Shown here: one piece after another, positions 1,194 to 46,338 of the stretch | Layout of the letters: each line of letters opens with the position of its first letter | Position numbering within the stretch: the first letter of the stretch is position 1 | Sequence record: OZ503099.1 | Direction: 5' to 3' (one strand) | From: a phage | Length of the DNA stretch: 48,179 bases | Notes under the pieces: generated by a model | Database searches by the model: none | What the model was told of the DNA's origin: nothing | Seen by the model: the letters and a program-made list of their open reading frames with translations, nothing else | Position numbers and translations under genes: made by a program

Positions 1194-5197
<4,004 letters not shown>

Positions 5198-9424: not shown

Positions 9425-9711
9425 AAAATTATGAAGAGATGAGCGATTTTGAGATTAACTGCCGTGTGCACGCAGAGATTATGCAAATCTCAGGGTTGAA
9501 TTCATTTAAGGCAAAAGACTACTGCAACAACCCATCTTATGCATGGCCCATAATAATTGATAATCACATGTCAATTGAATGCGTCACGGTTAACCGGCAT
9601 GCGTTTACATATCGCGTGTATCACTCTGCATCGTTCACTAAAAGTACGCACGAAAACCCCCTTCGTGCCGCCATGATCGTCTTCCTTAAAATGAATGAGG
9701 ATAAATTATGA
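9421..9711 (+). CDS. Hypothetical protein
   Basis: 96-aa ORF, translationally coupled within island A. Confidence 0.5.
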   Translation: MKNYEEMSDFEINCRVHAEIMQISGLNSFKAKDYCNNPSYAWPIIIDNHMSIECVTVNRHAFTYRVYHSASFTKSTHENPLRAAMIVFLKMNEDKL

Positions 9712-21130: not shown

Positions 21131-21457
21131 TCATAACCCCGCCTCCTGTTTTGCGCGGTGAACGTAAGACATGAACTTGCCAATAGGCATTTCCTTGCGG
21201 ATTTGCGCCAGTATCGCGCCATGAATCATTCTTTCTTCGCCAAAATATAGCTTATCAAGACGAGTTTTAATGAGTGCTCGCGTGCGCTTCATGTGGTCGC
21301 GCGCCTTAAGTGCTTTCTCATGCCAGACGCGATCATTCTTCTTATCTGCATATTGCAGTTGACGCTCAACGGTTTCGATTTCAAACGCCAGTTGCATGTC
21401 ATAATCTTCAAGCTGAATGATGTCTGCTTTCATGATGTCGTTTAACTGGATAATCAT
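21131..21457 (-). CDS. Hypothetical protein
   Basis: 108 aa from internal ATG 21457; ATGA overlap with upstream gene. Confidence 0.4.
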   Translation of the reverse strand: MIIQLNDIMKADIIQLEDYDMQLAFEIETVERQLQYADKKNDRVWHEKALKARDHMKRTRALIKTRLDKLYFGEERMIHGAILAQIRKEMPIGKFMSYVHRAKQEAGL

Positions 21458-21756
21458 TTGCTTAACTCCTTCAACATATCGTAAGCGCCGCGAGTGTACG
21501 GATGGTCGTAAGGGTTTCTTTCCCATTCTTGAATTTCCTTCTCCTCCCATTTACTTAGCTTCTTGCTGTTTAAATACACAGCTGGATTAACTTTCTTGTC
21601 AAGCATGTACTGATTTCCAATCCACTTTTCAAATTCTTCCTGTGTCATCTTCACTTCCTCCACTATCCAGCCCATCTTCCTACGGTTATTGGCAACAAAC
21701 TCGTCTGATGTTACAAACAGAGTTCTGCCAGATTTATGCTTAATAGCCCATCTCAT
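21454..21756 (-). CDS. Hypothetical protein
   Basis: 100-aa ORF. Confidence 0.45.
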   Translation of the reverse strand: MRWAIKHKSGRTLFVTSDEFVANNRRKMGWIVEEVKMTQEEFEKWIGNQYMLDKKVNPAVYLNSKKLSKWEEKEIQEWERNPYDHPYTRGAYDMLKELSK

Positions 21757-21881: not shown

Positions 21882-22376
21882 TCATACTCTTGCTTCTTGC
21901 GTTTGGCTTTCCCCATGCTGACCTCTTACGTTGCGAAGAAGTGAATTGAACAGGTTGCTCACATTAACTTCCTGCTCATGCCATGAGTAACTCCACAGCT
22001 TCTTGTGGTGGTCATAGCTTCGCGTCACGTCTCCGTTATGAAACATAATGCGGATGCGGTTTTTCACGATTCGATAATCAATGCTAGTGTCTGCGCTAAT
22101 TTCTTTCACCTCTGCGCCAGCGTTATCAATCAAATGGCACTTAATGGCATCATCAATACCTGCCGCATCATCAGAGATGAAATATTTATACTGCCACTTA
22201 CCGCCACGAATCACTGACTTCTCACGGCGAATAAAGCCAAGTGCCAGCATCTCATGCAAACGATGCGTAGTTGTGCTTGAATGTTTACCACCGCAATGCT
22301 TTTCAATGTATGCGCGCGTTGCTCCCGGATGATTGACAATCACGCGCATTATTTGCGATTCATAGTCCATAATCAC
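21882..22376 (-). CDS. Hypothetical protein with N-terminal winged-helix-like region
   Basis: 164 aa; N-terminal 70 aa resemble a winged-helix DNA-binding fold. Confidence 0.35.
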   Translation of the reverse strand: MIMDYESQIMRVIVNHPGATRAYIEKHCGGKHSSTTTHRLHEMLALGFIRREKSVIRGGKWQYKYFISDDAAGIDDAIKCHLIDNAGAEVKEISADTSIDYRIVKNRIRIMFHNGDVTRSYDHHKKLWSYSWHEQEVNVSNLFNSLLRNVRGQHGESQTQEARV

Positions 22377-22614
22377 GCCCCTCTGCTACCTGATTGAAGT
22401 CTTCTGCGGTGTACAGGTTCCCACCTCTTGTGTTCCATTGCGTAGCTGCTGTCAGTTTTGTTACGTGAACATCACTTGAGCATCCGCACTCACACATGGC
22501 GAAATACATTCCATCATCGTTATATAACTTAACTTCGCTGCTGCCACAGAATGGGCACTCAAGCAGCATTTCATCATTCATTGTTGGCATATGTGGTGCG
22601 CTCATTTCACCCAC
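22360..22614 (-). CDS. Lar-family-like zinc-ribbon protein (possible restriction alleviation)
   Basis: LLECPFCGSSEVKLY...YFAMCECGCSS: CPFCG then CxCGC spacing as in Lar-family proteins. Confidence 0.5.
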   Translation of the reverse strand: MGEMSAPHMPTMNDEMLLECPFCGSSEVKLYNDDGMYFAMCECGCSSDVHVTKLTAATQWNTRGGNLYTAEDFNQVAEGRDYGL

Positions 22615-22796
22615 TCCCCAAGATTATTAAATTTAGGCGTATCACCAGACCAGTCGATAACGTCTTTCTGCTGACTACGCTTACGTTGCAGGCGGTTGCG
22701 CACTTCTCGCAGCTCGCATTCCAGCCATTCGCGAGTACGCTCAACTTCATTCAGTCGCTGGATTAGCGATTCTTCGTACAGTTCGTCATGCGCCAT
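22602..22796 (-). CDS. Hypothetical small coiled-coil protein
   Basis: 64-aa ORF. Confidence 0.4.
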   Translation of the reverse strand: MAHDELYEESLIQRLNEVERTREWLECELREVRNRLQRKRSQQKDVIDWSGDTPKFNNLGEWVK

Positions 22797-31386: not shown

Positions 31387-32811
31387 TTATCGCCTGCGAC
31401 GGATTAGCATTCCACTGCCACGCTGAACGATGTGGTCATTGAGTGCATAACGAACCGCGTCCCAGTAGTGGTTATATGCATCAACAATATCAGTCAGCAC
31501 ATTCCCTGTCAGCTTATCAACTTTGTAGCTGTACATTGCCGCCTCATTCTGCATCTCCTTGCATCGTTCGTGAATGACAATGCTGTCGCAGCCGCGTAAC
31601 CATGTCACGCCATCCTCGACACTGCCGGGCCATTTTGTGCATGGATGAATGTCAAAGCCAGAGCGCTTGATGTGGCTGATAGTTTCTGGTCGCGCGCAGT
31701 CGGCATACCATCGTGCGCGCTTAGCCATCGGGAATGATTGCTCCATCGCAGCTGGCGTGTCGGTAATCTCAAGCCCCACCTTTCCGTACTCGCGATTAAT
31801 ATAAATATTGCGTCGCCCGCCGGGTAACTCTTCGATGTAAACCTCAACCATTGCGGTTGGATCGGTGGAAAACCCAAAGTCCATCCCGAAGTATGGTCCA
31901 TGCCATTCAGGCTTGACCTCGAAGTTATCAATGAGCCATTTTCCGCCAAATACCTGTTCGTCGCTACGCTTGTTGAATTTTCCTTCATACACCCAAAGGT
32001 AGCGATCATAATCCACTGCCTTCATCTGGTTCATGTGCTGTTTAAGTTCTTCCGTGAACCACGGGTTGTGAACGTAGTTAACATTAACAACAACGATGTC
32101 ATCATCCTGATATATGCCATCTACCATCTTGTCGATGTAAGGCTCAACAAAGTTAGTCCATGTCGGGTCCGTCTCTTTGTTCGGGTTAAAAACAATAATA
32201 ATTTCAGAACCAGCGGCGCGCACCGTTGGAATTAACGTATCCCATGACACCTGACTGATGTTTTCGGATTCTTCACAGAACACGTCTGTAAGGCCAGCCA
32301 TGCCTTTGATTGCGGTTATGTTTCGCCAAAGGCCACGAAAAACAAACTTTGATCTCGTTGTGTGGTGTGTTATCTCGCCATCCACGCAACGATATTCCTG
32401 AGTGTGCCCCTTCCTGTTTATCTCATCAACCAGTTCGGCATAGCTTGATTCTTTGATTGAGTTCTGTATCTCACGGAAGCATCCGACGCGGCTGTTGCGG
32501 AATCTTGCCTTTTCTATAAGGTAAGAAACAACGTTAGCCGTCTTTCCGCTGCCCCTACCCCCATAGAACACCTTGAAACGGCGAGGATAAAGCAGCAGCT
32601 CCATTCGCTCAGGTATTAATATTGTTGGCTTCTCGTCTGTTTCTGACACGCCAGTGGCTGTCATTTTAAGGCACTTAACCACATTCGGTGTACCGTCAGG
32701 CAATAGCTTATCGACAATACCGAAAACAGAAGACTCTGGTTTTGCAGTTGAATTGCCTACTGCTTGCTCAAGTTTTTCTATCGCAACGCTTGAGAGTCTT
32801 TTACGCGCCAT
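31387..32811 (-). CDS. Terminase large subunit
   Basis: Walker A YGGRGSGKT near the N-terminus, conserved acidic nuclease-type residues in the C-terminal half, 474 aa. Confidence 0.8.
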   Translation of the reverse strand: MARKRLSSVAIEKLEQAVGNSTAKPESSVFGIVDKLLPDGTPNVVKCLKMTATGVSETDEKPTILIPERMELLLYPRRFKVFYGGRGSGKTANVVSYLIEKARFRNSRVGCFREIQNSIKESSYAELVDEINRKGHTQEYRCVDGEITHHTTRSKFVFRGLWRNITAIKGMAGLTDVFCEESENISQVSWDTLIPTVRAAGSEIIIVFNPNKETDPTWTNFVEPYIDKMVDGIYQDDDIVVVNVNYVHNPWFTEELKQHMNQMKAVDYDRYLWVYEGKFNKRSDEQVFGGKWLIDNFEVKPEWHGPYFGMDFGFSTDPTAMVEVYIEELPGGRRNIYINREYGKVGLEITDTPAAMEQSFPMAKRARWYADCARPETISHIKRSGFDIHPCTKWPGSVEDGVTWLRGCDSIVIHERCKEMQNEAAMYSYKVDKLTGNVLTDIVDAYNHYWDAVRYALNDHIVQRGSGMLIRRRR

Positions 32812-33319
32812 GATTGCAAAATTCTCCCTGATGTTTCTCCCTGAACTGTCTTATTGCACGATCAGCATCATCAATTGATGAAAACCTACCTATTTTGTGA
32901 TACTTGCCAAATAACCAGCATTGGGCTATCCACTTTCCCCTTTGATTATCCCAGCTAACTCCCTTGATTCCAGATGTGTTGTTTTTTTGCATCCTCTTGT
33001 TCCACTGATTCTGTGATGTTGTGGCCAGTCTTAAATTTTTAATCCTGTTATCGTTGCGAATGCCATTAATGTGGTCAACTTGTTCTTCAGGCCAAGCTCC
33101 ATAGACGTAAAGCCATGCCAGCCTATGAGCAAGATAGATTCTTCCACTTATTCCTATTTCCACATACCCCTTCTTAGGTTTTATCCTGCCAGCAATGCTT
33201 CCAGAATTTATTCTTCTGCTTGGCTTACTTAACCACGTGAAAACACCAGTGTCTGGATTGTAATGCAGGAGGTGTTTAAGTCTCTCTTGAGTGATGGGCA
33301 ACTCTTTTAATGATGGCAT
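32801..33319 (-). CDS. HNH homing endonuclease with AP2-type domain
   Basis: DHINGIRNDNRIKNLRLATTSQNQWN plus SGIKGVSWDNQRGKWIAQ; paralogue of 4710-5201 and 40538-41128; sits between putative small and large terminase genes. Confidence 0.75.
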   Translation of the reverse strand: MPSLKELPITQERLKHLLHYNPDTGVFTWLSKPSRRINSGSIAGRIKPKKGYVEIGISGRIYLAHRLAWLYVYGAWPEEQVDHINGIRNDNRIKNLRLATTSQNQWNKRMQKNNTSGIKGVSWDNQRGKWIAQCWLFGKYHKIGRFSSIDDADRAIRQFREKHQGEFCNHGA

Positions 33320-35485: not shown

Positions 35486-35727
35486 ACCATAACCCCCATT
35501 ATTTCTTCGTAATAGCCATCTTCTTCAAACTCAATCTTTGCGATTTTGAGCGCATCATCATCTGTGATGTCAATCGCTTTGAATTTGCACTTTGCCAGCA
35601 CGATGCAGCCAGAAAGAATTAGCCACTTATTCCACCAGTGGACTCTCTTGATTGTCCTGCTTGCATACATTTTGTTCTGCACTATCCAGAACTCGTATGT
35701 TTTCACTTTTTCCATATCAATCACCAT
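35482..35727 (-). CDS. Hypothetical protein
   Basis: 81-aa ORF; overlap with neighbours. Confidence 0.4.
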   Translation of the reverse strand: MVIDMEKVKTYEFWIVQNKMYASRTIKRVHWWNKWLILSGCIVLAKCKFKAIDITDDDALKIAKIEFEEDGYYEEIMGVMV

Positions 35728-35920
35728 CTACTCTGCGATTCCAGTCGACGACTGCCTGTTCTGCAGACTCCCTGAAGTTTGTCATTCTCGCCCCGCATGA
35801 GCATCGAATGAGAAAGTATGGTCTTTCATGGTCAGATGAACGCCATAGCTTAACTTTTGGTTCACCACCGCAAAACGGACAACTCTTGATAATCAACTCA
35901 CTCATATAATCACCATTCAA
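35717..35920 (-). CDS. Lar-family-like zinc-ribbon protein (possible restriction alleviation)
   Basis: IIKSCPFCGGEPKVK...YFLIRCSCGARMTNF: CPFCGG and CSCG motifs as in Lar-family proteins. Confidence 0.5.
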   Translation of the reverse strand: MNGDYMSELIIKSCPFCGGEPKVKLWRSSDHERPYFLIRCSCGARMTNFRESAEQAVVDWNRRVDGD

Positions 35921-40537: not shown

Positions 40538-41128
40538 ATGGAACATCAAGAGCTGAGTTTTGTTGTTCAGGATGCAGACTCAAAAGTTTCCGAGAAAAAA
40601 AGAAGGGTGCTAAAAATTGATGTTGATTACGTGACATCAAGGTTAGAGGTTGTCAATGGACGCCTGTATTGGAAAAGGAGAGATGAATTAACGCCATACC
40701 ACAAAACATGGAATGCACGGTATCCGGGGAAACCTGCTGACAATAAGCTTGACAAAATGAATTACAGGCTTGTGATGATTGATGGTGTTTATTATAAAGC
40801 ACATAGAATTGTATGGGCTATATGCAAACAGCAAGACCCTGGAGCTATGGACATTGATCACATCAATACAATTAAGAACGATAACAGGATAGAAAATCTC
40901 AGGTTGGCTGATTGCAGTCAAAACAAATGGAATAAAGGCTTATCATCAAATAACACTAGCGGATACAAAGGTGTTAGTTGGTTCAAAAGGGAGAAACGGT
41001 GGGTTGCTCAGATTTGGGTTAGAGGTAAAAAGAAAGTTATTGGTTATTTTAATACCCCTGAAGATGCACATAAAGCGTATGCAAAAGCATCATCAAGTCT
41101 TCATGGTGAATTTGGTAGGGTAAAATAA
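40538..41128 (+). CDS. HNH homing endonuclease with AP2-type domain
   Basis: DHINTIKNDNRIENLRLADCSQNKWN plus SGYKGVSWFKREKRWVAQIW; stop overlaps helicase start (TAATG). Confidence 0.7.
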   Translation: MEHQELSFVVQDADSKVSEKKRRVLKIDVDYVTSRLEVVNGRLYWKRRDELTPYHKTWNARYPGKPADNKLDKMNYRLVMIDGVYYKAHRIVWAICKQQDPGAMDIDHINTIKNDNRIENLRLADCSQNKWNKGLSSNNTSGYKGVSWFKREKRWVAQIWVRGKKKVIGYFNTPEDAHKAYAKASSSLHGEFGRVK

Positions 41129-45718: not shown

Positions 45719-46219
45719 ATGGCACGCGGCGTAAATAAAGTAATTATTGTCGGCACTTTAGGTAATGACCCTGAAGTAAAATATTCAGCATCAGGTTCTG
45801 CTATTGCCAACCTTTCCGTTGCAACATCTGAGCAGTGGAAAGACAAGCAAACAGGAGAAAAGAAGGAGCAGACTGAATGGCATCGTGTTGTCATATTCGG
45901 GAAACTTGCGGAAGTTGCAGGAGAATACCTTCGCAAAGGTTCGCAGGTTTATATCGAAGGCCAGCTGCGCACTCGTAAGTGGACTGACAGCAACGGCGTG
46001 GACAAATACACCACTGAGATTGTCATTCCGCAGATGGGTGGCGTTATGCAGATGCTTGGAGGTAAACGCGAAGATTCTGGTCAGCAACCACGCCAGAAAT
46101 CAGGCCAACAACCTCAACAACTTCAACAACCGCAACGACAACAGCAGCAACCAAAACAACAAATCCCACAAGGAGGTAATGAGCCTCCGATGGACTTCGA
46201 TGACGATATTCCGTTTTGA
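45719..46219 (+). CDS. ssb: Single-stranded DNA-binding protein
   Basis: [17 protein letters not shown]...[41 protein letters not shown] and acidic tail [11 protein letters not shown] are near-identical to E. coli SSB as I recall it. Confidence 0.9.
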
Positions 46220-46239
46220 ATATAAAGAGGGAGTGTGAT

Positions 46240-46338
46240 ATGTGTAAATTAAAATGCAATTGTGGCGGCGCTGTTGATGTGCATGTAAGCGCGAACAAAT
46301 TTTATGCGCAATGTGAAAGATGCCACTATGGATGGTAG
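46240..46338 (+). CDS. Possible small zinc-ribbon protein (32 aa)
   Basis: MCKLKCNCGG...QCERCHYGW; GAGGGA RBS; not in the ORF track (below size cutoff). Confidence 0.3.
   Translation: MCKLKCNCGGAVDVHVSANKFYAQCERCHYGW

Follow-up and report, generated by a model that had tools for sequence, protein, structure and literature searches.

A small gene of the phage DNA analysed here encodes what is, to judge from its sequence, very probably a genuine zinc ribbon of the Lar family (four cysteine ligands, 81 amino acids), and the most distinctive property of this gene is a cassette-like hypervariable core enclosed by two constant segments. The cassette architecture and its association with a homing endonuclease gene are new, in that neither is described in any paper that we found; our literature search likewise returned no paper on hypervariability of the Lar-like gene and none on experiments with its subfamily. 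The gene, called copy 1 below, lies on the minus strand of sequence record OZ503099.1, and the whole 48,179-nucleotide stretch of this record that was analysed is called the window. Taking all of the evidence together, we tentatively favour, at a little under even confidence, the explanation that copy 1 is a Lar zinc ribbon that acts as a protein binder and carries a variable core for a polymorphic host target.

Gene model and surrounding genes

The preliminary description reported a minus-strand open reading frame at 22360..22614, with 84 amino acids counted from a GTG codon. Both the open reading frame list and the sequence confirm it, and the encoded protein contains the two cysteine motifs given there, ECPFCGSS and CECGCSS. 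The start codon of copy 1 is almost certainly the ATG at 22605, which yields 81 amino acids, and the GTG at 22614 is improbable. The ATG is preferred because it forms an ATGA overlap with the stop codon of the upstream gene (22602..22796); furthermore, a GGAG element 8 nt 5' of the ATG overlaps the GTG, which would therefore have no room for a ribosome-binding site of its own. The annotated length of the orthologue in the nearest relative (Bas80_0028, 246 nt) fits the ATG start. The features of copy 1 and its neighbours are as follows.

22360..22605, minus strand: Lar-family copy 1, probable true coding sequence of 81 codons plus stop (open reading frame list, ATGA overlap, GGAG, Bas80_0028 and PF14354)
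22543..22605, minus strand: constant N-terminal segment, codons 1-21 (MSAPHMPxMNDExLLECPFCG), with the first zinc knuckle C17/C20 (low entropy; pN/pS)
22438..22542, minus strand: hypervariable core cassette, codons 22-56 (entropy, identity dip, type clustering, boundaries and AlphaFold2 model)
22363..22437, minus strand: constant C-terminal segment, codons 57-81, consisting of WNxR and the tail GxLYTAEDFNQxAEERDYGL (low entropy; pN/pS)
22614..22617, minus strand: putative Shine-Dalgarno-like element GGAG, 8 nt 5' of the ATG at 22605 (read from the sequence)
21882..22370, minus strand: downstream gene, MarR-like winged-helix protein of 162 amino acids (phrog_1687, 4e-55; weak Pfam MarR matches)
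22602..22796, minus strand: upstream gene, coiled-coil-like protein of 64 amino acids (open reading frame list; phrog_15697; 4-nt ATGA overlap with copy 1)

Patterns of the CxxC...CxC type occur eight times in a six-frame scan of the window, and the cysteine pattern alone is thus not rare. That copy 1 is a real gene follows from its Pfam match (E=7e-9), its full-length presence in 202 phage records and the purifying selection on its flanks and core; a chance open reading frame was considered and rejected, since conservation and selection rule it out.

Copy 1 belongs to a tightly packed minus-strand run of small genes with overlapping reading frames. The MarR-like winged-helix-turn-helix (wHTH) gene, its usual neighbour, overlaps the 3' end of copy 1 by 11 nt. 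The wHTH protein (21882-22370, minus strand) also has a weak match (4e-4) to a PHROG annotated as a Ren-like exclusion protein. In the phage Bas78, the wHTH gene is missing from its usual place beside the Lar-like gene, and an unrelated 99-aa open reading frame is found there instead. The 64-aa upstream protein is 89-97% identical in most relatives of the close clade and 75% identical in locus L018. Bas77, Bas79, Bas80, Bas81 and about 12 of 29 related loci have an extra basic 73-aa gene (Bas80_0027; positions 4574-4795 of L001), which separates the 64-aa gene from the Lar-like one. The corresponding junction in the window is 22602-22605, and no homologue of the 73-aa gene exists anywhere in the window; an apparent divergence 5' of copy 1 in the alignment of the region turned out to be an artefact of this accessory gene. 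Two positions downstream of copy 1, a 100-aa gene (21454-21756, minus strand) is mosaic, most loci matching it over 33-71% of its length at 62-92% identity, which hints that the operon has a further site prone to recombination. A promoter and terminator scan around the operon gave results no better than those from shuffled sequence, and no promoter-like site was found on the plus strand near copy 1.

The name "copy 1" in the preliminary description implied another Lar-family gene, and such a gene does exist.

35717..35905, minus strand: copy 2, Lar-family zinc ribbon of 62 amino acids (PF14354, 41.1 bits)

Copy 2 has 28% identity to copy 1 (BLASTP E=5e-7) and lacks the N- and C-terminal extensions. 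It is a conserved accessory gene, present in only 10 deposited phage records, at 87-98% identity. Elsewhere in the window, directly after an SSB-like gene (45719-46219), there is a candidate Cys-rich open reading frame of 40 amino acids (46216-46338, plus strand; CDMCKLKCNCGG...CERCHYGW), which gave no Pfam match.

Family membership

Our profile search agrees with the family named in the preliminary description: PF14354 (Lar_restr_allev) matches copy 1 with 36.2 bits (E=7.1e-9), above the curated gathering score of 28.6. The outcome that would have spoken against the family there, absence of a significant Lar profile match, did not occur. The match covers positions 3-57 of the 58 in the model and residues 17-63 of the 84-aa reading frame, corresponding to residues 14-60 of the 81-aa protein. 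The same domain is found, as a precomputed assignment, on nearly all clusters of the subfamily, and the "Lar-like" family phrog_599 matches copy 1 at 9e-13. With the NCBIfam model TIGR03655 (anti_R_Lar), copy 1 scores 38.0 bits (E=1.5e-9, model positions 1-54 of 55), which is 1.6 below the cutoff of 39.6. Using the sequence of the Rac prophage protein Lar/RalR from the K-12 record NC_000913, we obtained 33% identity over 54 residues by BLASTP (E=3e-7), and hhalign of the 121-sequence subfamily profile against RalR gave a probability of 97.8% (E=1e-12, 50 columns). The residues C17, C20, C38, C40, W57, N58 and R60 are invariant or nearly so in the subfamily; the second knuckle of copy 1 is CxC with an additional C42. 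From these cysteine ligands, zinc binding by copy 1 is predicted. The tail after WNxR is specific to the subfamily, lies outside the Pfam domain and is absent from RalR and copy 2. No PADLOC-DB defence model matched copy 1 or copy 2 at E<=0.1.

Phage relatives of the window

The window is a Skatevirus-like siphovirus. The 3-kb stretch around copy 1 is approximately 90% identical to the Escherichia phages Bas77-80 and C1 and to Shigella phage DS8, and it also matches many Salmonella phages. According to the BASEL paper (PMC11990801), Bas77-81 belong to a cluster centred on Skatevirus and made up of siphoviruses that depend on O-antigen and have 46-48 kb genomes. Orthologues in Bas77-81, DS8, Salmonella phages KFSST1, IME207 and Vi II-E1, and Klebsiella phages VLCpiS13a-c already bear the label "Lar-like restriction alleviation protein", and the paper on KFSST1 lists two Lar-like genes, matching copy 1 and copy 2 of the window (PMC12965234). 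The Lar-family call for copy 1 is thus correct and already known as an annotation in sister phages. Copy 1 orthologues were found at full length in all of 202 phage records, 188 of them below 60% identity and 14 at 60% or above, and the locus beside the wHTH gene spans Escherichia, Klebsiella and Aeromonas phages. Copy 1 is a universal, positionally fixed gene of Skatevirus-like siphoviruses.

Constant-variable-constant architecture

A profile search recovered at least 196 clusters (90% identity) of this subfamily of about 80 amino acids, mostly on 45-48 kb contigs where the contig was long enough to tell, and 29 orthologous loci with flanking DNA (L003-L031) were compared. Column entropy over 121 sequences is low at residues 1-21 and 57-77 and reaches 2-3.6 bits at residues 22-56, where the only conserved exceptions are C38, C40, T/S44 and A53. 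This hypervariable core, which the preliminary description did not mention, comprises the beta-hairpin, the second Cys knuckle (C38 and C40, plus C42) and most of the helix. The same pattern is seen at the nucleotide level: identity along the gene starts at about 0.84 over its first 60 nt, falls to 0.41-0.52 at approximately 22548-22441 and is back at 0.8-0.9 in the 3' part and the downstream gene.

Among close relatives, the neighbouring genes show 87-98% protein identity compared with 48-60% for the copy 1 protein. In deposited phages, the wHTH neighbour is at least 80% identical in 96 of its 156 records, and the copy 1 protein is at least 60% identical in 14. Copy 2 served as a control and is 90% identical in two genomes in which copy 1 is 52-60% identical.

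Selection on the core and its exchange

Our own Nei-Gojobori counts, which are uncorrected p-distances over short regions and non-independent pairs, gave pN/pS values of 0.08-0.11 for the N-terminal segment and 0.19-0.30 for the C-terminal segment, with pS of 0.5-0.8 in the flanks. Such high pS values with low pN/pS mean that it is the protein sequence of the flanks that has been conserved, recent DNA identity not being the cause. When the window is compared with L003-L006, which share its core type, the core has pN of 0.02-0.05 and pS of 0.4-0.7, compared with pN of 0.50 between types. Hence the flanks and each core type are shown to be under purifying selection, and the cores represent old alleles kept by selection rather than products of decay, because pN is far below pS within a type and is 0.50 between types.

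The cores of 153 sequences cluster into at least 36 types, with a bimodal distribution of identities, and among the 18 types that have several members, 10 occur with flanks from more than one lineage. Core type 2, with 14 members, is that of the window and is also found in Bas80, DS8 and one Salmonella phage. Phages isolated on a single E. coli K-12 host have four different core types. Two pairs of loci reveal the exchange most clearly. L013 and L026 have flanking genes of only about 45-50% nucleotide identity, and identity climbs to 0.91-0.98 inside the gene only, the cores being identical in amino acids with five synonymous differences. Conversely, L013 and L014 have backbones 85-95% identical, and identity falls to 0.40-0.49 exactly at the core. 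These mirror-image profiles indicate that what is exchanged is a cassette of about 110-170 nt lying within the gene, and they show that the core has been swapped in this way between divergent phage lineages.

[quoted passage not shown]

In Bas78 and two other loci (L029 and L030), an HNH endonuclease gene is inserted after the sequence WNTRGG of the Lar-like reading frame. The insertion sites, all inside the 3' end of the Lar-like gene, are as follows.

L069 (Bas78), 1965-2706: HNH insertion
L029, 3206-3730: HNH insertion
L030, about 3224-3750: HNH insertion

The interrupted Lar reading frame ends in a surrogate tail, FVYSNxDYEDINxEVRS. In Bas78 and L029, the HNH reading frame carries the canonical tail (GHLYTAxD...) fused to its end; this fusion was not detected in L030. 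A replacement tail that travels with the HNH element suggests that the tail of the Lar-like protein matters. Between backbones with only 35-49% identity in the neighbouring genes, the HNH proteins are still 90-92% identical, from which it follows that the element is mobile. It would offer a mechanism for stimulating local recombination; alone, however, it does not explain the diversity, because it occurs with several cores and the cores are selectively constrained. Copy 1 of the window is itself uninterrupted by HNH. Three paralogous HNH genes are present elsewhere in the window (32807-33304, minus strand; 4707-5186, plus strand; 40715-41113, plus strand) and are 40-45% identical to the HNH that has invaded the Lar-like gene of Bas78.

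Predicted structure

An AlphaFold2 model based on the 121-sequence alignment has a mean pLDDT of 85.7, with values above 90 for residues of about 10-65. It predicts a beta-hairpin (residues 25-30 and 33-38), a helix (50-57) and a low-confidence C-terminal helix (67-78), the C-terminal tail having a pLDDT of 42-53. In this model, the constant N-terminal segment and residues 59-64 pair by short strand contacts, so that the two constant parts are predicted to pack together. PDB searches by sequence, with the single protein and with the 121-sequence profile, returned only generic zinc ribbons at non-significant E values (aIF2-beta, eL24, the ClpX zinc-binding domain and TFIIIB). Foldseek found no match in the PDB at E<=0.001 and weak matches in BFVD (best E=7e-3), several of which are named "restriction alleviation protein". 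Thus, neither the sequence nor the modelled fold appears to have relatives among solved structures, and these searches offer no structural precedent that would point to a mechanism.

Published evidence on restriction alleviation

Lar has been reported to enhance de novo methylation by EcoKI, by a mechanism described as unknown (PMC3177214). Guo et al. found that RalR is a Mg/Ca-dependent DNase toxin, which contradicts an anti-restriction role (PMC4041452). Restriction alleviation by copy 1 would accordingly rest on homology to a single characterised protein, Rac Lar, whose activity is disputed. The usual functional model comes from lambda Ral, which alleviates type IA restriction and turns M.EcoKI into a de novo methyltransferase; when Ral was made before infection, the rescue was 800-fold (PMC3874165).

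Phenotypes have been published for the closest relatives of the window. Bas77 has one EcoKI site with an efficiency of plating (EOP) of 0.1 and two EcoCFT_I sites with an EOP of 0.001, from one visible replicate (PMC11990801, supplementary data). Bas78-80 have one EcoKI site each (EOP 0.02-0.2) and three EcoCFT_I sites each (EOP 1.4e-4 to 1.3e-3), and Bas81 has two EcoKI sites (EOP 6e-4 to 2e-3) and two EcoCFT_I sites (EOP 0.004-0.015). All five are also restricted by type II and type III systems, and the authors regard them as markedly sensitive to restriction-modification (R-M; PMC11990801). These five phages represent four core types, including that of the window in Bas80, and restriction tracks the number of sites with no allele standing out. 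Their plating argues against strong self-protection from EcoKI and EcoCFT_I. It is a weak test of a Ral-like activity, since effects of the Ral type are seen mainly with protein made ahead of infection: the 800-fold rescue by pre-induced Ral implies that an activity of the Lar/Ral type is possible with no strong effect on the plating of the infecting phage itself. The window contains four EcoKI sites (AACN6GTGC at 9457, 30536, 30647 and 38028), compared with one in each of its sisters Bas77-80; the four sites do not differ significantly from the 7.2 +/- 2.5 expected and are unusable as evidence of type I pressure.

In a PhageMaP knockout screen of the lytic phage Bas63, the Lar homologue gene 32 was conditionally important, depending on the host strain (PMC11482910). 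The effect was seen on hosts without intact type I systems, and the authors suggest type IV systems (PMC11482910); it therefore lends no support to the classical function of Lar.

As to the DNase activity, the residues of RalR needed for toxicity or DNase include K52 (K52Q abolishes activity) and residues 14, 37, 39, 49 and 51 (PMC4041452). K52 aligns to T59 of copy 1, at a position where 115 of the 121 subfamily members have T; R49 corresponds to Q56, at which the subfamily varies, and N51 to the conserved N58. Copy 1 scores 19.2 bits with the RalR equivalog model NF007260, far below the cutoff of 113. No Rfam family reached threshold anywhere in the window, although Rfam may hold no RalA model, and a novel sRNA is possible.

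Proposed function of the variable core

We consider it an even question whether copy 1 is a protein binder whose target, in the host or its defences, is polymorphic. In such a scheme the protein would work through a protein partner: its constant function would come from the two conserved terminal segments, and the surface formed by the variable hairpin, knuckle and helix would decide which variant of the polymorphic host target is bound. By homology, the most plausible class of target would be the methyltransferase core of type I R-M enzymes, which might be steered into de novo methylation, as has been suggested for Lar and Ral, and the R-M families or specificities targeted may be other than EcoKI and EcoCFT_I. 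That copy 1 serves specifically in type I restriction alleviation nevertheless seems unlikely. Finding four core types among phages isolated on one K-12 host is easier to reconcile with an accessory target that is polymorphic than with an essential protein of the host. The host-dependent importance of the Bas63 homologue also speaks for the protein-binder explanation. Against it, an accessory anti-defence gene would not usually be found in all members of a phage group, Bas77-81 are restricted, and the anti-restriction role of Lar is contradicted by Guo et al. The core might further be a natural specificity cassette, each of the at least 36 types serving against a different host defence variant. 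The targets would then be, for example, distinct families or specificities of type I R-M, or another kind of sensor, and phages would re-arm by swaps of about 110-170 nt between the conserved flanks, aided by a homing endonuclease with its cut in the conserved 3' end. We hold this extension to be possible but rather doubtful.

The strongest competing explanation is that copy 1 has a developmental or regulatory role tied to the MarR-like gene. Copy 1 would be a core factor unconnected with anti-defence, for example a zinc-ribbon partner of the wHTH protein or a factor binding DNA or RNA polymerase, and "Lar" would denote nothing beyond a shared small zinc-ribbon fold. Presence in all 202 related phage records, the 11-nt overlap with the wHTH gene and the lack of an anti-restriction phenotype in relatives all speak for such a role, as do the only structural neighbours, which are zinc ribbons of the nucleic-acid machinery (aIF2-beta, RNA polymerase subunits and TFIIIB, with non-significant scores). 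However, a phage-encoded partner should co-vary with the core, whereas the neighbours stay 87-98% identical across core types, and Bas78 keeps its Lar-like gene without a wHTH gene at the usual position. Moreover, the Lar homology is specific, extending beyond the Cys ligands to the WNxR motif, and a set of at least 36 core types, maintained by selection and reassorted horizontally, is what one would sooner expect of a conflict interface; we therefore judge the developmental role somewhat unlikely.

The remaining rivals are less likely still. Whatever the primary job of the protein, the diversity of its core could reflect escape from a host abortive-infection system or another sensor of an abundant phage protein. 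The same constant-variable-constant pattern and cassette exchange would be expected, and discrete, long-lived types shared across lineages fit negative frequency-dependent selection. No such sensor is known, however, the PADLOC library gives no link, and purifying selection within types is expected under either model and so does not discriminate; sensor escape appears improbable to us. The homology to RalR, the weak match to its NCBIfam model and the activity reported by Guo et al. could instead point to a RalR-like non-specific DNase, acting as a toxin or in degradation of host DNA. Against this stand the equivalog score, the T at the position of K52, the lack of an Rfam match or of an arrangement resembling an sRNA antitoxin, and the apparent nature of the protein as a bare zinc ribbon of about 60 amino acids with no recognisable nuclease active site, and we regard a DNase as very improbable. 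Least credible of all is passive variability, in which gene conversion driven by the homing endonuclease shuffles neutral sequence in loosely constrained loops. The mobile HNH gene lies in the 3' constant region in Bas78, L029 and L030, and recombination is certainly stimulated there, but non-synonymous changes are about ten-fold rarer than synonymous ones within a type, so that the core is constrained; in addition, the HNH element is found with several different cores, and copy 2, which has the same fold, is not variable.

Significance and comparison with known systems

"Lar-like restriction alleviation protein" is among the commonest functional labels that annotation pipelines give to small phage genes, and it traces to a single prophage protein with a mechanism described as unknown and a disputed activity. 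In the window, the label is right at the family level, and nothing in the phenotypes published for sister phages points to the function that it names. The cassette and the HNH association make the gene more interesting than its label suggests, and the diversity of core alleles provides a tractable route to the real target. If the core encodes target specificity, the gene would be a compact example of modular counter-defence evolution. Its cassette would be the phage-side counterpart of hsdS-style specificity shuffling, and the core types would form a ready-made allelic series for learning what Lar-family proteins do.

The Lar-like genes of Bas77-81, DS8, KFSST1, IME207, Vi II-E1 and VLCpiS13a-c are positional orthologues of copy 1, labelled by automated annotation of the PHROG/Pharokka type. 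Bas80_0028 is 91% identical to copy 1 and has the same core type, but most orthologues share with it the flanks only, at an overall identity of 40-60%. Gene 32 of Bas63, a Felixounavirus, is a Lar-family gene of a virulent phage and the sole one that we found with knockout data; it comes from another phage group and another subfamily than copy 1. Lambda Ral, the small phage protein whose functional model is usually attached to Lar, is not homologous to copy 1: this relationship was rejected, there being no Ral family among the Pfam matches at E<=10.

The closest characterised system is Rac Lar/RalR of E. coli K-12 (b1348, 64 amino acids), the founding member of PF14354 and TIGR03655. Both proteins have a zinc ribbon of the form CPFCG...C-x(1-2)-C and, after it, a helix with W-N-x-R at its end. 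Copy 1 differs in being eight residues longer at the N-terminus and in continuing into a conserved C-terminal tail, about 20 residues long, both extensions being absent from RalR, and in its second knuckle, which is CxC in copy 1 and CxxC in RalR. The genomic settings are also different, RalR being located beside recET in a lambdoid prophage, whereas copy 1 is a universal gene of a virulent siphovirus and carries a cassette-like hypervariable core.
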